Source of the DNA: an uncultured Verrucomicrobiae bacterium | GTDB lineage: Bacteria > Verrucomicrobiota > Verrucomicrobiia > Chthoniobacterales > JAFAMB01 | Assembly: GCA_963762565.1 (NCBI GenBank) | Contig: CAVXLD010000007.1 | Span: 384,001 to 448,000 of the forward strand | DNA: 64,000 bases | Direction of reading: 5' to 3' | Shown: positions 24,584 through 63,578 of the stretch, one piece after another | How positions within the stretch are numbered: position 1 is the stretch's first letter | How the letters are laid out: every line of letters begins with the position of its first letter | The notes under the pieces: model-generated | What the model saw: only the letters and a program-made list of their open reading frames with translations | Told to the model about the DNA's origin: nothing | Database searches by the model: none | Translations under genes and position numbers: made by a program

Positions 24584-25344
24584 GTCCCGTAGGGACAGAA
24601 CGATAGTAGCCAGGCACGTTGTGCCTGGGATGGGTAAAAAGACGGCTCGTCCCGTAGGGACGATTGAGACGCGCATTAGTCCAGGGCGTATTTCTCCTCA
24701 AAATCCAATCCGTGCCGTTTCAGAATAGCCAAATACTCTTCCCGAAAGGTCCGAGTGCGATGATGCTCCGGTTGGTTTTGGATGTATGCCATCGTCTCCG
24801 AAAGCTGGGAGGTGCTGACGCTGAAAGCGCCGTAGCCCTCTTGCCAACTAAAGTTACGGAATTGCCGAAAATTCTGGTGGATCCAGGCCGAGGATCCACC
24901 CTTGATCAATTGAATGGCTTTAGCAACGGACAGTGTCGTCGGCATCGATAGGAGCAGATGAACGTGGTCTGCGACCCCACCGACGCATCTTGGTTTGATG
25001 CCGTTTTGTTTGGCGATGCCGCCTAGGAAAGGCCATAGACGTTCTCTAAGTTCAGGGTTCAGAACCGGGACGCGCTCTTTGGTGGTGAAAACACAATGGA
25101 TGTTCAGAGAGAAAAACGTATTCGGCATAGACTAGAGATTATCCGAGATCACCAGATAAAGAAACATATTTTATTACTGTGTTTACGATGCAAACCGGCG
25201 ACCGAAATTTTAACTGTCCCAACGGGCGAGATGTTCGCAATTTACCGTTCGGCCGGAATCAAGCGTCCCTACGGGACGCGATTCTTTCTCTGGCGCATCC
25301 CAGGCACTTCGTGCCTGGCTACTATCGTTCTGTCCCTACGGGAC
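24584..25344. mobile_element. RAYT/IS200-like element with ~80-bp inverted arms
   Basis: gtcccgtagggacagaacgatagtagccaggcac... and ...gtgcctggctactatcgttctgtccctacgggac flank the transposase gene. Confidence 0.9.
24676..25128 (-). CDS. tnpA: IS200/IS605-family Y1 HUH transposase (REP-associated tyrosine transposase-like)
   Basis: HCVFTTK, DHVHLL (HUH), WQEGYGAFSVS, YIQNQPEHH (catalytic Tyr). Confidence 0.92.
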   Translation of the reverse strand: MPNTFFSLNIHCVFTTKERVPVLNPELRERLWPFLGGIAKQNGIKPRCVGGVADHVHLLLSMPTTLSVAKAIQLIKGGSSAWIHQNFRQFRNFSWQEGYGAFSVSTSQLSETMAYIQNQPEHHRTRTFREEYLAILKRHGLDFEEKYALD

Positions 25345-38577: not shown

Positions 38578-38695
38578 GAGTGATTGGTGATTGGTGATTG
38601 TGTGTGTGGGATTGGTGATTGGTGATTGGTGATTGGTGATTGGTGATTGGTGATTGGTGATTGGTGATTGGTGATTGGTGATTGGTGATTGGTGA
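38578..38695. repeat. 7-mer tandem array (GGTGATT)n, about 15 units
   Basis: Directly visible; source of the spurious PITNHQS ORFs. Confidence 0.95.
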
Positions 38696-38788
38696 GCGCA
38701 CTGACGGACAGATAGCAACAACAAAGAGCGGGAATGTACGGTTTCGCGCCTCAGCGACGATCGACCGCTGCTTTTCACGCTTCACTTT

Positions 38789-39562
38789 TCACTTTTCTCC
38801 TTCTCTCTGGGACGCCGCTAACGCTGCTTCCCCCGCGGCCGGGGGGAAAATCTCCACCACATTTCCATCCAATCGCAGCGAGACAGAGGGTTCATGATCG
38901 TGATCGGTCGGGCCGCGGTTAATAATGACATACGGCACTCCGCGTTGGGCTGCGAGTAAAGGGAATGAGGCTGCCGGGTAGACAGAGAGAGTTGAGCCAA
39001 GCGCTACCACCAGGTCGCAACCGCGGGCGACTTCGGTCGCCTGTTCCAGATCGGCAGGATTAAGATTTTGACCAAAGCTGACCGTTGCCGGTTTAAGAAA
39101 ACCGCCACAATGGCAAAGCGGTGGTTTCCGGTGAAGGCGGAAAAATTCGTAGTGGGGTTCGGGGTCTCCGCGCCAAAGGCAGGTTTGGCACTCCACTAAC
39201 GCATTGGTTCCGTGGAGCTCGATCAAGGACTGGGTTCCGGCCAAGGTATGCAAGCCGTCGATATTCTGGGTTACAACAGCCAGGACTTTCCCGGCCTTTT
39301 CCAAATCGACGATGGCCCGGTGGACTTCATTTGGTCTGGCGGCTTTAAAAGCGGGCCAGGCTTCGAGTTTGTAATCCCAATGTTCGATCCGAGCGCGCTC
39401 CGAGCTCATGAAATCGTCGTAATAGATCGGAGCTCTTTTGGTCCAAACGCCGCCCGGTCCGCGGAAGTCCGGGATACCGCTAGCCGTGGATATGCCGGCA
39501 CCGGTGAAGATCATGATGCGGCGCGATTGCTGCAGGTGGCGGGTGAGGCGCGGGTCGGGCAT
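38789..39562 (-). CDS. cobB: NAD-dependent protein deacylase (sirtuin)
   Basis: TGAGISTASGIPDFRG, TQNIDGLH, ELHG, Zn-binding cysteines. Confidence 0.92.
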   Translation of the reverse strand: MPDPRLTRHLQQSRRIMIFTGAGISTASGIPDFRGPGGVWTKRAPIYYDDFMSSERARIEHWDYKLEAWPAFKAARPNEVHRAIVDLEKAGKVLAVVTQNIDGLHTLAGTQSLIELHGTNALVECQTCLWRGDPEPHYEFFRLHRKPPLCHCGGFLKPATVSFGQNLNPADLEQATEVARGCDLVVALGSTLSVYPAASFPLLAAQRGVPYVIINRGPTDHDHEPSVSLRLDGNVVEIFPPAAGEAALAASQREGEK

Positions 39563-39579
39563 TCTAGGAGTGGCGAGAA

Positions 39580-39731
39580 GGTGATTGGTGATTGGTGATT
39601 AGTGATTGGTGTCCATGGAGGTTGCCTATCGATCAGACTCAAGATGCTGTACGCGCTAATTAGCGCCAGCAGTTACGATAAGTCGAGCAAGCTCACCAAT
39701 CACCAATCACCAATCACCAATCACCAATCAC
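39580..39731. repeat. inverted 7-mer arrays (GGTGATT)n / (AATCACC)n with ~85-bp core
   Basis: Arrays at 39580-39611 and 39693-39731. Confidence 0.9.
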
Positions 39732-45749: not shown

Positions 45750-45764
45750 GGGGGGAGAGGGCGT

Positions 45765-45992
45765 GAGAGGTGAGAGGTGAGAGTTGAGAGGTGATTGGTC
45801 GCGCCCGGCTTGCCCGACGTAGCACTCGGAGTCTAAACGACATAGCGAAGTCGGGAGTATCGAACGACGGGGCGATGTTGGCTTTATTCTTGCGGGCGCG
45901 ATCTGGGAGATGACTTATGGCTTGTCACCTTTCACTTTTGTACCCGCCGCCACGACCTCTCACATCTCACCAATCACCTCTCACTTCTCACC
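45765..45992. repeat. inverted 7-mer arrays (GAGAGGT)n / (ACCTCTC)n with nested hairpin
   Basis: Directly visible upstream of lepA. Confidence 0.7.
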
Positions 45993-46043
45993 TAAGAAGC
46001 CTTCTGGATTCTCTGTTCGCGTCCTGTATAGTGCGCCCTCTGC

Positions 46044-54062: not shown

Positions 54063-55163
54063 TCACGCCGAGCCCGCTTCTTGACGCAATCTCGCCATTT
54101 CTTCGGGCAGCGGCGGGAAGACGCCGAATTCTGTAACTAACCCGGAGACAAATCGGCGGGGAGTAACATCAAATGCGTAGTTTAGCGCATCGCTACCTTC
54201 GGGAGTGAGTTGCACACTACAGACTTTGCCATCCGCGGTCCGGCCTGAGATGAGCGTGACTTCTTCCGGGGCACGCGTCTCGATGGGAATACTCTTCACT
54301 CCGTCGTCAATAGTCCAATCGATCGTCGACACAGGTAAGGCTACATAAAAAGGGACTCGATTATCGTGGGCAGCCAACGCTTTAAGGTAAGTGCCGATCT
54401 TGTTGCAAACATCGCCGCCAGCGGTGGTGCGGTCGCTGCCGACGATGCAAAGGTCGACCCGCCCGTGTTGCATGAGATGTCCGCCAGCATTGTCTACAAT
54501 AACTGTGTGGGGCACACCATGATGACCCAGTTCCCAAGCTGTGAGAGAGGCTCCTTGGTTCCGTGGCCGAGTCTCGTCTACCCAAACATGAACGGGAATA
54601 CCGGCATCGAATGCCTTATAGATGGGAGCCAGAGCAGTTCCCCAGTCGACGGTTGCTAACCAACCCGCATTACAATGGGTCAGGACGTTCACTGGACGCG
54701 AGCGTTGAACATTGTCCCAAGCTTGCTCGATCAAGGCTTTCCCGTGTTCACCGATGGCAGAACAGTTGGCGACGTCTTCATCCGCGATGATTTTAGCGGT
54801 GGCCAGGGCGACGGATACGCGTTCTCTCGGCTCAAGCGAAAGCAGGACCGATCGCATCCGATCGAGCGCCCAGCGTAAGTTGTATGCGGTGGGACGCGAA
54901 GCGAACAACGCATCATAGGCATGCTCAAAGGCTTTATCACTCGGATCGGCGGCCATCGCCAGTGCGATCCCGTAACCGGCAGAAGCTCCAATTAACGGTG
55001 CGCCGCGTACGACCATGTTGCGGATACCGGCGACCACATCATCCAGTGTTCGCCATTCAACAACTTTGAAGACATGAGGGAGTAAAGTCTGATCGATCAC
55101 GCTAACCGAAATATGGTCAGCATTTGGCCAGATGGTTCGATAAGGTTGGCCGTCAACTCTCAT
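54063..55163 (-). CDS. mtnA: S-methyl-5-thioribose-1-phosphate isomerase
   Basis: [29 protein letters not shown]. Confidence 0.95.
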
Positions 55164-55511
55164 GGTGTGAATACTCCTGACGGTTTGCTAGCGGTTACTT
55201 AAGTAATTTCAGAGAAACTCTCAGATTCTATCACAACAAAAACGGTAGGGCGAGGCGCGCGGGAGAGGTGAAAAGTGAAGGGCCGGTAGGGCGAAAATCT
55301 CGGCGCGCATTAGATGAGCCATTCACAATATGCTTGTACGCGCCGGATTTGAGCCGCGCCGTGGACGTACCACCTCCCTAGCTTCGATGGGATGGATGAA
55401 AAATAACCTTCTTGATGATACACCGCGCACGCATGGCTCAAATCCGGCGCGGTTCAGCCAGGAAGGTGGTTTGCCTTGGCCGCGCCGAGATTTTCGCCCT
55501 ACCTCTTCCGC

Positions 55512-56855
55512 CTATCCGAACAATAATCGGCACACGAAAACAGCGGCGACAGCTCCGGCGAGGTCGGCAAGTAGGCCGGCAAAAATTGCATGCCGGATGC
55601 GCGTGATCCCAACAGAGCCGAAGTAAACGGCGACAACGTAAAAGGTTGTTTCAGCGCTGCCGTAGATCGTCGCAGCCGTGTAGGTGAGCAAGCTGTCAGG
55701 CCCGAATTGTTTAATCATGTCGCTTAGAACCGCGAGTGAACCGCTGCCACTGAGCGGTCGCATTAGGACCATCGGCAGCATTTCGCCCGGGATCTGAAGA
55801 ACGCCAAAAATCGGACTGAGCAGTAGTTTCAAAAAGTCTAGTGCTCCGGATTCGCGGAACACCGCAATCGCAACTAACATTGCCACGAGATAAGGGATGA
55901 TCCGGAGCGCAGTTTGAAAGCCTTCTTTCGCACCTTCGATGAATTCTGAGTAAATAGGCACCCCCCGTCCGAAGGCATACAGCGGGAAAAACGTCAGCAC
56001 GAACGGTACGGCGATGGGGGAAAGCGCCTTCAATACCAGGATCATGCCGGAGAGCAAATCAGAAGGCCAAGGGGCTGCGCCAAACAGGTAAGGAAACGCC
56101 TTGCTAACGAACGCACCGATAAAAACCAGTAACAGAATGACTAGTGCCCATCGAGCCCAGGACGGGCCTGCCTTTTTTTCGGATTGAGCGAGGTCCGGTT
56201 CTGGCTGTTCTTCCGTATTGTCTGCAGCCTGGTTCTGGATTGGGTCCGCGGGCGCCGGCTGGTTTTCCCAACGAAAAGGGCCAACTCGCTCAAGCAGCTT
56301 GACGGTGATGATCGCGCAGATGGTGGCAAACCCGGTGGAAAGCAAAGTCGATCCCACGATGGCGGACGGATTTTTCGAACCGTTAATCGCGAGCAAATTG
56401 ATGGCCGTGGCGGGGATCAACTGGATCGAAGCGGTGTTGATCGCCAAAAAAGTGCACATGGCGTTGGTGGCGACGCCGGGTTTAGAGTTGAGCCGGTTGA
56501 GCTCGGTCATCGCCTTCAGACCAAGCGGCGTTGCGGCGTTGCTTACCCCCAGCATGTTGGCGGAGATGTTCATCATCATGGCGCCGATCGCCGGATGATC
56601 GCTGGGGACATCAGGAAAAAGCCGTAACATGATCGGCCGGATCAATCGTCCCAGGCGTTGGATCAGACCTGATTTTTCTGCCAACCGCATCAGACCTAGC
56701 CACAGCGCCATCACTCCGACCAGCGGAAGCGCGAGATCCATGACCGCTGACTTCGCCGCGGTCAGCCCCCCTTGCCCAACGGCGTCAAGTTTCCCAGTAA
56801 ATACGGCTACCAATACGCCGGAAAGCAGTAGTGCTAGCCAGATTACGTTGAGCAT
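55512..56855 (-). CDS. fused SpmA/SpmB nucleoside-recognition (Gate) membrane protein
   Basis: ANMLGVSNAATPLGLKAM, RPLSGSGS, ETTFYV. Confidence 0.88.
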   Translation of the reverse strand: MLNVIWLALLLSGVLVAVFTGKLDAVGQGGLTAAKSAVMDLALPLVGVMALWLGLMRLAEKSGLIQRLGRLIRPIMLRLFPDVPSDHPAIGAMMMNISANMLGVSNAATPLGLKAMTELNRLNSKPGVATNAMCTFLAINTASIQLIPATAINLLAINGSKNPSAIVGSTLLSTGFATICAIITVKLLERVGPFRWENQPAPADPIQNQAADNTEEQPEPDLAQSEKKAGPSWARWALVILLLVFIGAFVSKAFPYLFGAAPWPSDLLSGMILVLKALSPIAVPFVLTFFPLYAFGRGVPIYSEFIEGAKEGFQTALRIIPYLVAMLVAIAVFRESGALDFLKLLLSPIFGVLQIPGEMLPMVLMRPLSGSGSLAVLSDMIKQFGPDSLLTYTAATIYGSAETTFYVVAVYFGSVGITRIRHAIFAGLLADLAGAVAAVFVCRLLFG

Positions 56856-56889
56856 GGGAGGGGGTGGCGCGTGTTAAGAGGTGGCGGCT

Positions 56890-57063
56890 GGAGTGATGGA
56901 GTGGTGGAGTGATGGAGTGGTGGAGTGGTGGAGTGGTGGAGTGGTGGAGTGGTGGAGTGATGGAGTGATGGAGTGGTGGAGTGGTGGAGTGGTGGAGTGG
57001 TGGAGTGGTGGAGTGAGTGAGAGTGATGGAGTGATGGAGTGATGGAGTGGTGGAGTGGTGGAG
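56890..57063. repeat. 8-mer tandem array (GGAGTGGT/GGAGTGAT), about 21 units
   Basis: Directly visible. Confidence 0.95.
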
Positions 57064-57089
57064 AACTGGGCTACTGAGGTATTTTGCTG

Positions 57090-57548
57090 CTACGGTTTGT
57101 TGCCGGTCGTTCCGAGATACACGGCGTTGGATTCTCGGACGATTAACGTGTCGATCCAACCCCCGGCATCTTGTTTGCGTTCAAGAGCTTCTACTAGACG
57201 AAGCAGCCCGTTTTCGAGCTTAAATGCTAGCTGGTCAAGTGTATCGAATGCCTCTTCGGAGAGCTGATTTGCGGTTAAGTACGCGTGGTACCCAGAGACG
57301 CTTTCTCCTAGTGATCCAAGGGCGATGTAAAGGTAATGGATGTACTCTCGGATTGAGCGACGACAATAGCCCTCGGCGATGTTCCGATGAACCGAGTCAG
57401 CCGACGCCATGGCCTGGGAAGCAATGCGCTTCATTTCGAACGGCCATTCAGCCACTAGGCGGCAGGTTTCAGCGTACAACTTAATCGCATCTTGCCAGAC
57501 TCTCAGCTGCTGGTAGCCACGATTCTTATTCTTTCGCTTTATACCCAT
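57090..57548 (-). CDS. four helix bundle protein (23S rRNA IVP-like)
   Basis: YQQLRVWQ, SVHRNIAEGYCR, YIALGSLGE. Confidence 0.88.
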   Translation of the reverse strand: MGIKRKNKNRGYQQLRVWQDAIKLYAETCRLVAEWPFEMKRIASQAMASADSVHRNIAEGYCRRSIREYIHYLYIALGSLGESVSGYHAYLTANQLSEEAFDTLDQLAFKLENGLLRLVEALERKQDAGGWIDTLIVRESNAVYLGTTGNKP

Positions 57549-57624
57549 CACCCCCAAATACCCCAATGCCCACCCGATCTACCACCCCAATCCTTCACCA
57601 CCGCCACAAACCATCCCAATACCC

Positions 57625-57842
57625 CCAACGCTCCAACGCTCCAACGCTCCAACACTCCAAGACTCCAACACTCCAAGACTCCAAGACTCCAAGACTCCAA
57701 GACTCCAACACTCCAACACTCCAAGACTCCAACACTCCAACACTCCAACACTCCGACACTCCGACACTCCAACACTCCAACACTCCAACACTCCAAGACT
57801 CCAACACTCCAACACTCCAACACTCCAACACTCCGACACTCC
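57625..57842. repeat. 8-mer tandem array (AACACTCC variants), about 27 units, inverted relative to 56890-57063
   Basis: Directly visible. Confidence 0.95.
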
Positions 57843-57937
57843 CCGTGCCACCTCTCGGCGCTCGCCATTCCTTTTTGCATACCACCGAATATTTCGTTGG
57901 CGAGATGGCCCTTTTTGCGGGTGATTAGGAGTGCCTT

Positions 57938-59467
57938 ATGAATCCTTGCCAACCGATTCCGCGTGCTGGTGAACCGTGTGCGATCGTCATCTTTGGAGCG
58001 TCCGGGGATCTCACAAAGCGTAAACTGATTCCGTCGCTTTATAATCTGGCTTCTTATCATCTGTTGCCGAAGAACTTCAGTATCATCGGAGTTGCTAGAA
58101 GCGACTGGAGCGACCAGGAGTTCGCCTCTCGGCTAGGGAAAGACCTGACCGAGCTTGGTACTCAGCCGGTTGACCCGAATATCTGGAGCGAGTTCCAGGA
58201 TCGGATGCTCTACTGTTCCGGAAGTTTTGACGATCCGAAAACGTACGAAAAACTTGGACAACGACTCGCCGAGTCTGCCAAGAGACTGGGGACAAATGGG
58301 AACGTCCTTTTTTATCTTTCGGTCCAGCCTTCGTTCTTTGCGACGATCGCAAAGATGTTGGCTCAGTACGGCCTGACTCGAGAAGAAGGTAATTGGCGCC
58401 GAGTAATCATCGAGAAACCGTTCGGCCATGATCTGTCATCGGCGTTGGAGTTGAACCGGAATTTAACCAGCGCATTGCAGGAGCATCAGATCTATCGGAT
58501 CGACCATTACCTTGGGAAAGAGACCGCGCAGAACCTGCTCGTATTTCGGCTGGGCAATGCGGTATTCGAACCGATCTGGAACCGCCGTTACATCGATCAT
58601 TTTCAATTGACGGTCGCTGAATCCATTGGGGTGGAAGGAAGAGGAGCATTCTACGAGTCCGCGGGCGCGTTTCGAGACGTGATGCAGAATCACATGTTTA
58701 TGCTGCTGGCATTGATTGCGATGGAACCTCCGAACTCGCTTCAGGGTGAGGCGGTGCGAAACGAGAAAGTGAAGCTTTTGCAAGCGGTGCGTAGCAGTAC
58801 TCCGGAAGAGGCGTTGGCGTCTACGGTTCGCGGGCAATATGGGCCGGGGCAGGTTGGCGGCCTGAGTGTTCCGGGCTACCGCCAAGAAAAGAATGTCAAT
58901 CCGGAATCAACCGTAGAAACATACGCAGCGGTGAAGCTAATGATCGATAATTGGCGTTGGGCGGGCGTGCCTTTCTACCTGCGCTCAGGCAAACGCTTGG
59001 CTAAGCGAACCACGAAAATCGTGGTTCGGTTTAAGGTACCGTCCTTAGCGTTATTCGGATCGAACGAGAATGAGATGATTGCTCCTAACCGCCTTATTTT
59101 TAATATCCAACCGGATGAAGGGATCACATTTCAGGTGCGGGCCAAGGTGCCGGGTCCGACGTTAGCCACGAACGCGGTGCATCTTGATTTCGATTATTCG
59201 CAGTTTGGTGATCGAGCGCCGACCACAGGATACGAAAAGCTCTTGTATGATTGCATGGTAGGCGATTCGACTTTGTTTCACCGATCGGACATGGTCGAAG
59301 CGGCCTGGCAAGCCGCTCAACCCATCCTGGATGCCTGGGGGAATAATCCGCCGAAAGACTTTCCGAACTACGCCGCCGGCGCTTGGGGACCGGCAGCGGC
59401 TGATGAGCTTCTCGAACGCGACGACCACAAGTGGTGGTATCCATCGGAATCGGGGATATCGGCATAG
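57938..59467 (+). CDS. zwf: glucose-6-phosphate 1-dehydrogenase
   Basis: FGASGDL, EKPFG, RIDHYLGKE. Confidence 0.97.
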   Translation: MNPCQPIPRAGEPCAIVIFGASGDLTKRKLIPSLYNLASYHLLPKNFSIIGVARSDWSDQEFASRLGKDLTELGTQPVDPNIWSEFQDRMLYCSGSFDDPKTYEKLGQRLAESAKRLGTNGNVLFYLSVQPSFFATIAKMLAQYGLTREEGNWRRVIIEKPFGHDLSSALELNRNLTSALQEHQIYRIDHYLGKETAQNLLVFRLGNAVFEPIWNRRYIDHFQLTVAESIGVEGRGAFYESAGAFRDVMQNHMFMLLALIAMEPPNSLQGEAVRNEKVKLLQAVRSSTPEEALASTVRGQYGPGQVGGLSVPGYRQEKNVNPESTVETYAAVKLMIDNWRWAGVPFYLRSGKRLAKRTTKIVVRFKVPSLALFGSNENEMIAPNRLIFNIQPDEGITFQVRAKVPGPTLATNAVHLDFDYSQFGDRAPTTGYEKLLYDCMVGDSTLFHRSDMVEAAWQAAQPILDAWGNNPPKDFPNYAAGAWGPAAADELLERDDHKWWYPSESGISA

Positions 59468-59503
59468 GGCGGGTAGGGCGAAACGGCGTATGGGCGGGAT
59501 TTG

Positions 59504-59611
59504 GGGAGGGCGCGCGTCCTCGCGCGCTCTGAATCGTCGATATAGCCAAATGCTCGATCTGGTCTGTCCTGGGCTTCGATAACGACTGATCGCGAGCACG
59601 CGATCCCTCCC
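59504..59611. repeat. palindromic element, family B
   Basis: gggagggcgcgcgtcctcgcg ... cgcgagcacgcgatccctccc. Confidence 0.8.
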
Positions 59612-59654
59612 TTGCTATTTGCGTGCTGAAGTCTACGTTTCCGACTCTTGGTTT

Positions 59655-60845
59655 ATGGCTGCTAGTATAATTCCGGAAAGTCGCTGGACCGACGTCCAGC
59701 TTAGCAACGACGAGATCGCCCGCTATTCCCGGCACTTGATCATGCCGGAGGTGACGCTTGAGGGGCAGAAGAAATTGAAAGCGGCGTCCATCCTCTGTAT
59801 TGGGGCCGGAGGATTGGGTTCGCCCATAGCGCTCTACCTTGCAGCTGCTGGAATCGGCCGCTTGGGGTTGGTCGACCCGGATGTCGTTGATTTCTCGAAT
59901 CTCCAACGCCAGATCCTGCATGGCACCGATGACGTTGGCAGAAAAAAACTCAATTCAGCGAGGGATCGGATTAAGGCCGTGAATCCAAACGTCCAAGTCG
60001 ATCTTTACGATTGCCTCTTTCGCAGCGAAAACGCGATGGAGATAGTCCGCGACTATGACGTTATCGTAGATGGTACGGATAACTTTCCAACGCGTTATCT
60101 ATCGAATGACGTCAGTGTGCTGACCAAAAAACCGAATGTTTACGGGTCCATTTTCAGGTTCGATGGCCAGGCGACCGTGTTCGCGCCGCACTTGGGCGGT
60201 CCTTGTTATCGTTGCATGTTCCCGGAGCCGCCGCCTCCCGGTATGGTGCCAAGTTGCGCTGAAGGAGGCGTTCTCGGTGTGTTACCCGGTATCATCGGAG
60301 TTCTCCAAGCGATCGAAGCAGTAAAGCTAATTCTTGGAGTTGGAGACCCGTTGATCGGAAGGTTGATCAGCTTTGATGCGTTAAAGATGCGATTTCGCGA
60401 GTTCAAAGTCCGGCCCGATCCGAACTGTCCGATTTGCGGAAAGAATCCCACGATCCATGAACTGATCGATTACGAGCAATTTTGTGGGTTACCGCAAGCG
60501 GATGCGGAGGCTAAACAAGAGATGGCCGTCCCGGCAATCTCTGTGATTGATCTGAAGGCTAAGCTCGATCGCAAGGATCCTTTCGTCCTCGTCGATGTCC
60601 GAGAGCCTTATGAATACGAGATTTGCCACATTGAGGGAGCTCGTTTGATTCCGTTGGGTGAATTGCCCGGGCGGCTGAGTGAATTGGATAGCGCCGACGA
60701 GATCGTGTTGCAATGTAAGGGCGGTACTCGAAGCGCCCGTGCACTCCACGTCCTTTCGGACGCAGGGTTCCGCAAACTCTACAATTTAGAGGGTGGGATC
60801 ACCGAGTGGGCCGAAAGGGTCGATCCTTCGATGCCGAAGTATTAG
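59655..60845 (+). CDS. moeB: MoeB/ThiF adenylyltransferase with C-terminal rhodanese domain
   Basis: RYSRHL, GAGGLG, SNLQRQ, CYRC, CPIC, rhodanese CKGGTRS. Confidence 0.93.
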   Translation: MAASIIPESRWTDVQLSNDEIARYSRHLIMPEVTLEGQKKLKAASILCIGAGGLGSPIALYLAAAGIGRLGLVDPDVVDFSNLQRQILHGTDDVGRKKLNSARDRIKAVNPNVQVDLYDCLFRSENAMEIVRDYDVIVDGTDNFPTRYLSNDVSVLTKKPNVYGSIFRFDGQATVFAPHLGGPCYRCMFPEPPPPGMVPSCAEGGVLGVLPGIIGVLQAIEAVKLILGVGDPLIGRLISFDALKMRFREFKVRPDPNCPICGKNPTIHELIDYEQFCGLPQADAEAKQEMAVPAISVIDLKAKLDRKDPFVLVDVREPYEYEICHIEGARLIPLGELPGRLSELDSADEIVLQCKGGTRSARALHVLSDAGFRKLYNLEGGITEWAERVDPSMPKY

Positions 60846-63114: not shown

Positions 63115-63382
63115 GAGCGAGTCTTTATGCGCGTTGTGTCCAACCCGTTTTCAGGAATGCACTCCCGTTGCCGTCTGAGCAGTCTTTGGGAACGGCAGCG
63201 CCAGATCGGGGCAAATTTTTCCACGGTTGTCTGCGAAGGTTTTGAGGCAGTTAACGTCTGCGGGGGGCCATGCCTCGGAGCTTTCAAGGCAGGCGGCCGG
63301 GTAACCTGTTTGTTGCCCGGCCGCTACCAAACCGCCGCGCTCAGATATCTGGGGATTTCTGAGCGCGGGACTCTTTATTCCA

Positions 63383-63578
63383 GGAGCTAGGAGCTAGAAT
63401 CTAGGAGCTAGGAGAGGCGTTTGCAGCGGAGCGGATCCGCTGGATAGCAAACGGCTTCAGGGGTGGAACGGATGGGACCTATAGGACCTATGGGACTAAT
63501 ATGACTGGCGGACCACGCGCGGGAACGCCTTTATGCCGATCGGCTCTCCTAGCTCCTAGATTCTAGCTCCTAGCTCCT
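63383..63578. repeat. inverted 7-mer arrays (AGGAGCT)n / (AGCTCCT)n with nested GGACCTAT units
   Basis: Directly visible. Confidence 0.85.

Follow-up and report, generated by a model that had tools for sequence, protein, structure and literature searches.

A four-helix-bundle gene bracketed by inverted octamer arrays in an uncultured verrucomicrobial genome, and the repeat words found around its relatives

Organization of the locus

The 64,000-nucleotide stretch of DNA considered here (the window) comes from the genome of an uncultured Verrucomicrobiae bacterium (G000, assembly GCA_963762565.1), and in it a small minus-strand gene lies enclosed by two long arrays of tandem octamers between two host genes. 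Downstream of the cassette and outside it is a minus-strand gene with two Gate domains (55512–56855), which we take to be spmAB, and on the other side, likewise outside the cassette and divergent from it, is zwf (57938–59467, plus strand). In the direction of transcription (minus strand), the cassette opens with a 5′ arm (57625–57842) of 27 tandem 8-mers that are G-rich on the transcript, made up of GGAGTGTT (14 copies), GGAGTCTT (seven), GGAGTGTC (three) and GGAGCGTT (three). This is followed by a G-rich leader running from the array to the start codon (57549–57624), by the gene itself (57090–57548) and by a 3′ arm (56889–57063) of 21 tandem 8-mers, C-rich on the transcript (ACCACTCC, ATCACTCC) and counted on the plus strand as GGAGTGGT (13 copies) and GGAGTGAT (six). 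A preliminary description of this DNA had reported 21 and 27 inverted units around the gene, and both arrays were recovered with a period of 8, at 21.6 copies and 93% matches for 56889–57063 and at 27.2 copies and 94% matches for 57625–57842, the two being mutually inverted at 79% over 160 nt.

The same description had envisaged an imperfect stem of about 170 bp, which is right as a prediction: the folded minus-strand transcript (1082 nt, −500.7 kcal/mol) contains 168 arm-to-arm pairs, and a unique 9-bp pair (56877–56885 with the complementary 57847–57855) closes the predicted stem. The exact complement of any one arm’s unit is absent from the opposite arm, such that every unit contains a mismatch, and the longest unbroken helix in the predicted stem is 10 bp. 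On the coding strand, the stretch from 57549 to 57630 holds seven runs of 3–5 G ahead of the start codon, a possible G-quadruplex; the leader is much shorter in the orthologous cassette of a congener (G003), and the G runs are absent there. An Rfam scan of positions 55000–60000 returned one chance match only (E 0.95), and no sigma-70 promoter-like or terminator-like site was found.

The open reading frame spans 57090–57566 on the minus strand; the likely start is the ATG at 57548, which gives a protein of 152 aa, and an upstream TTG at 57566 would give 158 aa. The protein scores above the cut-offs of both family profiles (71.8 vs 33.8 bits for PF05635 and 73.9 vs 24 bits for TIGR02436), and its predicted structure (pLDDT 89.9) is matched by Foldseek to Xcc0516 (2GSC) with an rmsd of about 1.0 Å and a target TM-score of 0.93–0.95, as well as to BT_0352 (2RLD) and to Avd (4DWL, at an rmsd of 1.9 Å, and 8UB7). 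The earlier assignment to the four-helix-bundle family, and the likeness to Avd that came with it, are borne out by the profile scores and by the match of the model. By analogy with 2GSC, 2RLD and Avd, the protein is predicted to form a five-part ring. In the accessible part of a preprint on the structure of a DGR (bioRxiv 10.1101/2023.10.23.563531), all five Avd protomers touch RNA, and flipped-out RNA bases enter crevices between the protomers.

Inverted arms around other family members

The flanks of family members were compared at 156 distinct loci, comprising eight from G000, 30 of the 54 matches in five congeners, 89 of about 210 matches from a 60-genome sample of the phylum (mostly the better-scoring ones) and others that include a few Bacteroidota; full flanks were available for 147 of the 156. 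Inverted arms above the 99th percentile of cross-locus pairings were present at 98 of these 147 loci and arms in direct orientation at 11, whereas 73 of 1629 ordinary G000 genes of 300–700 nt passed the same inverted-arm test, and inverted arrays are thus strongly enriched around family members. A stricter tandem test was passed by 54 of the 147 loci, as compared with 28 of 1500 cross pairings and none of 31 spm/zwf controls. The 49 loci that fall under the 99th-percentile line include a whole arm-less sub-clade (L126, L127, L162, L163 and L182). Within G000, inspection by eye shows inverted arms around all seven PF05635 matches that exceed the cut-off, with a word distinct for each clade, such as GGTGATT, TAAGCAG or AATAGCC in clades other than the focal one, and six of the seven pass the computed test (p 5e-8); an eighth match, below the cut-off, is without inverted arms. 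The cassette layout is therefore real and general for the family.

These counts bear on the simplest alternative, namely that the gene is a passenger that came by chance to lie in repeat-rich intergenic DNA. Such a reading can point to the 1266 arrays of the genome, to the 73 ordinary genes that are bracketed as well and to near-identical cyanobacterial plasmid copies that ride in larger mobile elements, but it is already contradicted by the record of the seven G000 members and by the fact that the word goes with the protein from site to site and from family to family (described below), and we regard it as extremely improbable. As for the plasmids themselves, all five of the cyanobacterial plasmid loci that were read have downstream heptamer arrays, and three of the five have upstream ones too. 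Plasmid matches comprise 11 records, in which near-identical copies ride in integrase or ISL3 elements, so that they give no evidence of autonomous jumping; no phage matches to the gene were found.

The arms hug the reading frame: the first 3′ unit begins at most 20 nt from the stop codon in 60 of 84 loci, the last 5′ unit of 66 out of 86 loci ends at most 60 nt before the start, and several relatives have their start codon incorporated in that unit, an arrangement that would allow autoregulation. Variations on this plan occur. In one clade (L007, L176, L183, L186, L274, L279 and L282) the polarity is reversed, with the C-rich arm first, and the units are 6-mers (TCGTCC, TACTCT). At L092, both arms (1100–1196 and the downstream arm) contain a unique inverted repeat of about 40 bp that is nearly perfect, which suggests that arms may copy from each other. 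A similar build is also seen at 12 G000 loci of another gene, GxxExxY (TIGR04256/PF13366; L078–L087 plus two), where the inverted arms consist of units of about 9 bases, lie within 200 nt at 10 of the 12 loci and in one case contain a near-perfect 33-bp inverted repeat.

The repeat word and the protein clade

When the words of 103 loci with a called unit are compared with the proteins they enclose, a 5-mer is common to all 25 locus pairs above 75% protein identity, to 81% of the 43 pairs at 60–75%, to 41% of the 68 pairs at 50–60% and to 7–12% of pairs below 50%. Arms of the form TGGAGT-NN are present on both sides in each of the 13 intact relatives that reach 59% identity, and these occupy 12 different sites, with only G000 and G003 sharing one; beyond G003, synonymous sites are near saturation (pS 0.77–0.83). 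Relatives at 48–57% identity have the words TGGAAT, TGGAAG, TGGATT or TGGGGT. Conservation of the central unit, position by position (n = 206), is 0.70/0.93/0.89/0.91/0.95/0.85/0.56/0.47, and the two weakest positions of a unit lie side by side in 41.6 of 77 loci, where 24.6 would be expected. Each unit thus combines a fixed core with a free spacer, the focal core being TGGAGT plus two free bases.

Because selection on pairing alone would let the word drift, we infer a sequence-specific reader, and by analogy with Avd the focal protein would be the simplest candidate for that role; co-inheritance of arms and gene accounts for part of the match between word and clade. A residue-to-base code was not readable by eye from an alignment of 93 loci, in which the register is ambiguous. 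Two distant members of the focal clade, L222 (in G012) and L175 (in G067), lie behind one and the same host gene, which is 57% identical between them and presumably prfB.

History of the insertion sites

The flanking Gate-domain gene was found in four of five other congeners at 91–92% identity, and two of five congeneric genomes (G000 and G003) hold the cassette between spmAB and zwf; at the same place G002 and G005 have a different, 7-mer-armed element and G004 has a GTAG-type palindrome. The ortholog in G003 matches at 88% over 152 codons, with a dS of 1.4 and a dN/dS of 0.049, and the focal gene is thus under purifying selection. Since G000 branches first in the genus (95/91), the cassette is old at this site and was probably replaced in the others. 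The gene tree joins G000 with G003 (99/97) and the host gene places G003 with G002, G004 and G005 (95/91), which is a mild discordance. The G003 arms have about six units each, which pair in register. The long arrays of the preliminary description are real, but their length is peculiar to the focal lineage, in which the arrays of 27 and 21 units have expanded locally, likely because different units underwent slippage in the two arms.

Other sites tell of gain as well as persistence. An 80% relative lies at another site in G002, where G005, G003, G001 and G000 hold other hairpin elements; G005, the close sister of G002 (dS 0.17), has the same element at that site as G003, which suggests that G002 acquired its copy fairly recently. 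Two of the hairpin elements at this site look like the arms that enclose Y1-transposase genes in G000. A perfect-looking inverted repeat of 60 bp around the G002 copy was set aside, as it reaches the end of the contig and may in part be an artefact of assembly. A member behind a second zwf is present in G000 and four congeners, which is to say in five of five genomes in which the site was found. No target duplication was visible at the junctions compared, and the near-identical copies at multiple sites, with target duplication, that characterize IS elements and MITEs were not seen, there being one copy per genome in 10 of 10.

The gene is accordingly not syntenically fixed, as the spmAB–zwf site differs among congeners and relatives lie at 12 sites. 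A fixed gene with no enrichment of inverted arrays around its relatives, the outcome named beforehand as counting against the proposal, is not what is seen, since the arrays are enriched and the gene is not fixed. The insertion of a mobile cassette between housekeeping genes can be upheld in so far as the site varies, but the copy is an old one, shared with G003 (dS 1.4, dN/dS 0.05), and not a fresh arrival.

Gene-less arrays and decay of the cassette

The array detector finds 119 arrays on the focal contig and none after shuffling, and across G000 it finds 1266 arrays of 6–9-mers, of which 40 lie inside called genes; array pairs within 1.5 kb are inverted in 212 cases and direct in 41. The joint occurrence of gene and arrays was surveyed in 43 genomes of the taxonomic family, with the protein counted at E 1e-30 or better and a pattern match defined as three exact tandem TGGAGT-NN units. 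The protein is present in 10 of the 43, always in single copy, and at least 20 pattern matches occur in 8 of the 10 genomes with the protein vs 4 of the 33 without it (Fisher p 1.2e-4, in a sample whose kin are not independent); one of those four array-rich genomes carries a truncated copy. Among 150 other genomes of the phylum, the protein was found in four, and any pattern match occurs in two of the four vs 7 of the 146 without it (p 0.018), so that the link between protein and arrays is weak at phylum level. Pattern matches in the absence of a matching gene number 164 in G112 (96% complete), 55 in G055 (96%), 72 in G113 (83%) and 29 in G004 (84%), and TGGAG arms were found at none of the PF05635 loci read in G112, G055 and G113, which comprise all but one G113 locus and one weak G055 match. 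In G096 and G102, the protein is present with zero exact pattern matches.

Some of the gene-less elements can be traced to cassettes. Three remnants in G000, each about one-third of a gene, lie beside the arrays of their own clade, and two of them keep both arms; a further four-helix-bundle gene is split at C3:44245 by a multi-copy, MITE-like insert of about 220–270 bp (G000:C3:44497–44712); and several abundant words of G000 have a matching gene only in congeners. From the remnants, the split copy and the congener-only genes, we conclude that cassettes decay into gene-less elements and that arrays outlast genes. The MITE-like insert itself is found at about 50 other G000 sites. Of 159 short spacers, 119 are unique and not one matches the four-helix-bundle protein, and most gene-less elements are therefore not visibly gene remnants. 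Within the window, the 7-mer elements at 38580–39731, 45763–45993, 63382–63578 and 1710–1880 (words GGTGATT, GTGAGAG, AGCTAGG and CGTTTGG) match other four-helix-bundle clades of the genus and not the focal 8-mer. The suggestion that the focal gene is the coding member of the window’s gene-less elements is therefore right only in part: some gene-less elements do derive from such cassettes, as the remnants indicate, but most of those here use other words. Cassettes of this type likely account for some of the unexplained short intergenic repeats of bacteria. Genes for Y1 (IS200/RAYT-like) transposases in G000 also sit in long inverted arms, one of them at 24772–25116 of the window (minus strand), and their arms match elements found at gene-less versions of cassette sites.

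The dispersal of gene-less arrays could also be read in a REPtron-like manner, with the protein as a dedicated mobiliser (an enzyme or a cofactor) that spreads gene-less hairpins as single-stranded DNA. This would be in keeping with the single copy per genome (10 of 10), the co-occurrence of gene and arrays, the intergenic position of the arrays (40 of 1266 in genes) and the Y1-transposase genes of G000, which share the gene-between-arms build and whose matching gene-less sites hold similar elements. We nevertheless consider it quite unlikely, given that no catalytic motif and no nuclease or RT partner was found for the focal protein, that the focal ORF has only PF05635-type matches and none to the HUH/Y1 transposase of a REPtron, and that the RT matches of G000 are group-II-like and far from four-helix-bundle genes. 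No fusion to a partner enzyme recurs among 98 longer homologues (from 8000 candidates scored), and the only recurrent fusion, in 25 of the 98, is to a beta-propeller; the spacers of the gene-less elements are mostly unique, array-rich genomes without the gene exist and the compared sites show no target duplication. The fusion proteins (P0035, P0040, P0044 and 22 more, about 690 aa) join the four-helix bundle to a PF13360-type domain, which we take to be the beta-propeller, and this lineage is possibly domesticated.

A model for the cassette

On the transcript strand, G·U pairs are not in excess among the arm mismatches (91 G·U vs 112 A·C), and an RNA-level stem is therefore not supported. Co-directional neighbours account for 83 of 119 called cases as compared with a background of 63–64%, which is no clear enrichment. 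The arrays that adjoin gene ends obey a strict strand rule: they are G-rich after stops and C-rich before starts.

One reading in which the stem is central takes the cassette for an mRNA version of the rRNA intervening sequence (IVS): RNase III would cut the arm stem and free the ORF as a loop, and the protein would act on the excised RNA or matter little. The Coxiella IVS has the same build, with tandem GACAGAT just before the ORF and a 28-bp stem cut by RNase III in vitro according to the accessible text of PMC4990558, and the available part of a preprint on CPR bacteria (bioRxiv 2024.02.27.582315) places the PF05635 family in 16S and 23S insertions. The 168 pairs predicted for the focal stem and the in-register pairing of the short G003 arms are consistent with this, but the arm mismatches lack a G·U bias, every unit is mismatched and no helix exceeds 10 bp. 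Moreover, pairing alone leaves one word per clade unexplained, an mRNA cut without ligation would split the host transcript, and the focal ORF is under purifying selection, whereas the Coxiella ORF is reported to be decaying. Taken together, we think this reading unlikely.

The TRAP attenuation protein is a ring oligomer that reads tandem core-plus-spacer repeats, and the four-helix-bundle protein might likewise be a settled host regulator, whose ring binds arrays near starts and stops and tunes translation or termination, its own arms being autoregulatory. Purifying selection, single copy number, core-plus-spacer units and arrays that abut gene ends under a strict strand rule would all suit such a role, and a similar idea has been proposed for the Beggiatoaceae TAACTGA repeats in the accessible text of PMC4679880. 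A settled regulator would hardly be expected to show so patchy a presence (10 of 43 genomes in the taxonomic family, 4 of 150 in the phylum sample), with frequent broken copies, unrelated neighbours and sites swapped for other elements among close relatives; the strand rule, for its part, follows also from the geometry of a two-armed element. This role appears highly improbable to us.

The reading that we prefer, and to which we assign about an even chance, is that of an old, slowly relocating cassette whose predicted pentameric protein likely binds its own repeat. A ring protein like Xcc0516 or Avd would bind the TGGAGT word in single-stranded nucleic acid, likely RNA, with about one repeat unit bound per ring subunit. 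Translation of the gene itself would be controlled either by attachment of the protein to the start-proximal arm or by the two arms pairing with each other, and the same binding or pairing would keep the insert tolerable in a host transcript. As the cassette encodes no recognisable enzyme, its movement is likely to be rare and to depend on help in trans, which might come from recombination between matching arrays or flanking genes, or alternatively from a Y1 transposase or a reverse transcriptase encoded elsewhere. Internal deletion turns cassettes into gene-less arms.

Relation to known systems

Dispersed intergenic arrays of comparable units are in print for Xanthomonas (GGGAATC) and Nostoc (GGGGA(C/T)T) in PMC4692102 and for Beggiatoaceae (TAACTGA) in PMC4679880, and in the accessible parts of both papers many of them form convergent pairs or abut start codons, and G-quadruplex or translational roles are proposed. 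The Xanthomonas arrays occupy 186 sites, 70 of them in convergent pairs; row 27 of supplement file 2 of PMC4692102 gives an array of four GGGAATC units that starts 6 nt past bccP and runs into the xcc0516 start codon. This array is scored there as lacking an inverted partner, and the main text leaves the gene unnamed. The Beggiatoaceae repeats abut start codons and have no known binder in the accessible text of PMC4679880. A word search of the main texts found no mention of S23 in either paper or of four helix proteins in PMC4679880. The four-helix-bundle family has been noted near DGR and cas genes, as the accessible portions of PMC10053308 and PMC3936711 record, and no description of inverted tandem arrays around the PF05635 family was found in the literature, of which few subscription papers were covered.

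A generalization, which we offer as tentative and more doubtful than the model for the focal cassette, is that PF05635 could be a large family of pentameric, sequence-specific repeat readers, each clade with its own 6–9-base word, whose cassettes would seed intergenic heptamer and octamer arrays such as those of Xanthomonas (GGGAATC), Beggiatoaceae (TAACTGA) and cyanobacteria. ORF-bearing rRNA IVSs would then be copies that landed in rRNA, and the whole would form a transposase-free class, sister in layout to REPtrons and to the GxxExxY nuclease cassettes. This would link three puzzles, namely what S23p/IVP proteins do, where ORF-bearing rRNA IVSs come from and why intergenic 7–9-base tandem repeats are in excess. 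A very common family of hypothetical proteins gains a specific and cheap test, which is to ask of each protein whether it binds the word on either side of its gene. Should binding prove to be clade-specific, the family would provide a natural collection of small proteins that read repeats of many different kinds.

Among known systems, Avd (4DWL, 8UB7) has the same fold at an rmsd of 1.9–2.4 Å, and its pentamer binds RNA with repeated base pockets, but identity to the focal protein is 8–10% and no RT, template or variable repeat lies nearby; the neighbours are the Gate-domain gene and zwf and not the components of a DGR. TRAP serves as a working analogy, its fold and ring size being different and no ligand or attenuator having been seen at the focal cassette. 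The S23p IVS of Coxiella burnetii (and of Leptospira as cited in the accessible text of PMC4990558) encodes the same protein family in an ORF within a stem loop, with tandem heptamers of variable copy number just before the start codon. The focal cassette resembles it in the terminal inverted repeats that are predicted to close a stem around the ORF, but it lies between two protein genes, outside rRNA, and both of its arms are tandem arrays. REP/REPIN-RAYT systems and TIRtrons, as described in the accessible text of PMC3733652, likewise consist of a single gene in inverted arms with repeat-specific gene clades, and REPtrons and TIRtrons share with the focal type the gene-less intergenic relatives and the mutual occupation and replacement of the same sites. 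The focal gene, in contrast, is not of the HUH/Y1 type, its arms are tandem 6–9-mers without a GTAG/CGTC tag, and the spacers are mostly unique. The focal cassette therefore combines an IVS-like build with REPtron-like behaviour in the genome and is a member of neither class, as it lies outside rRNA and encodes no transposase.
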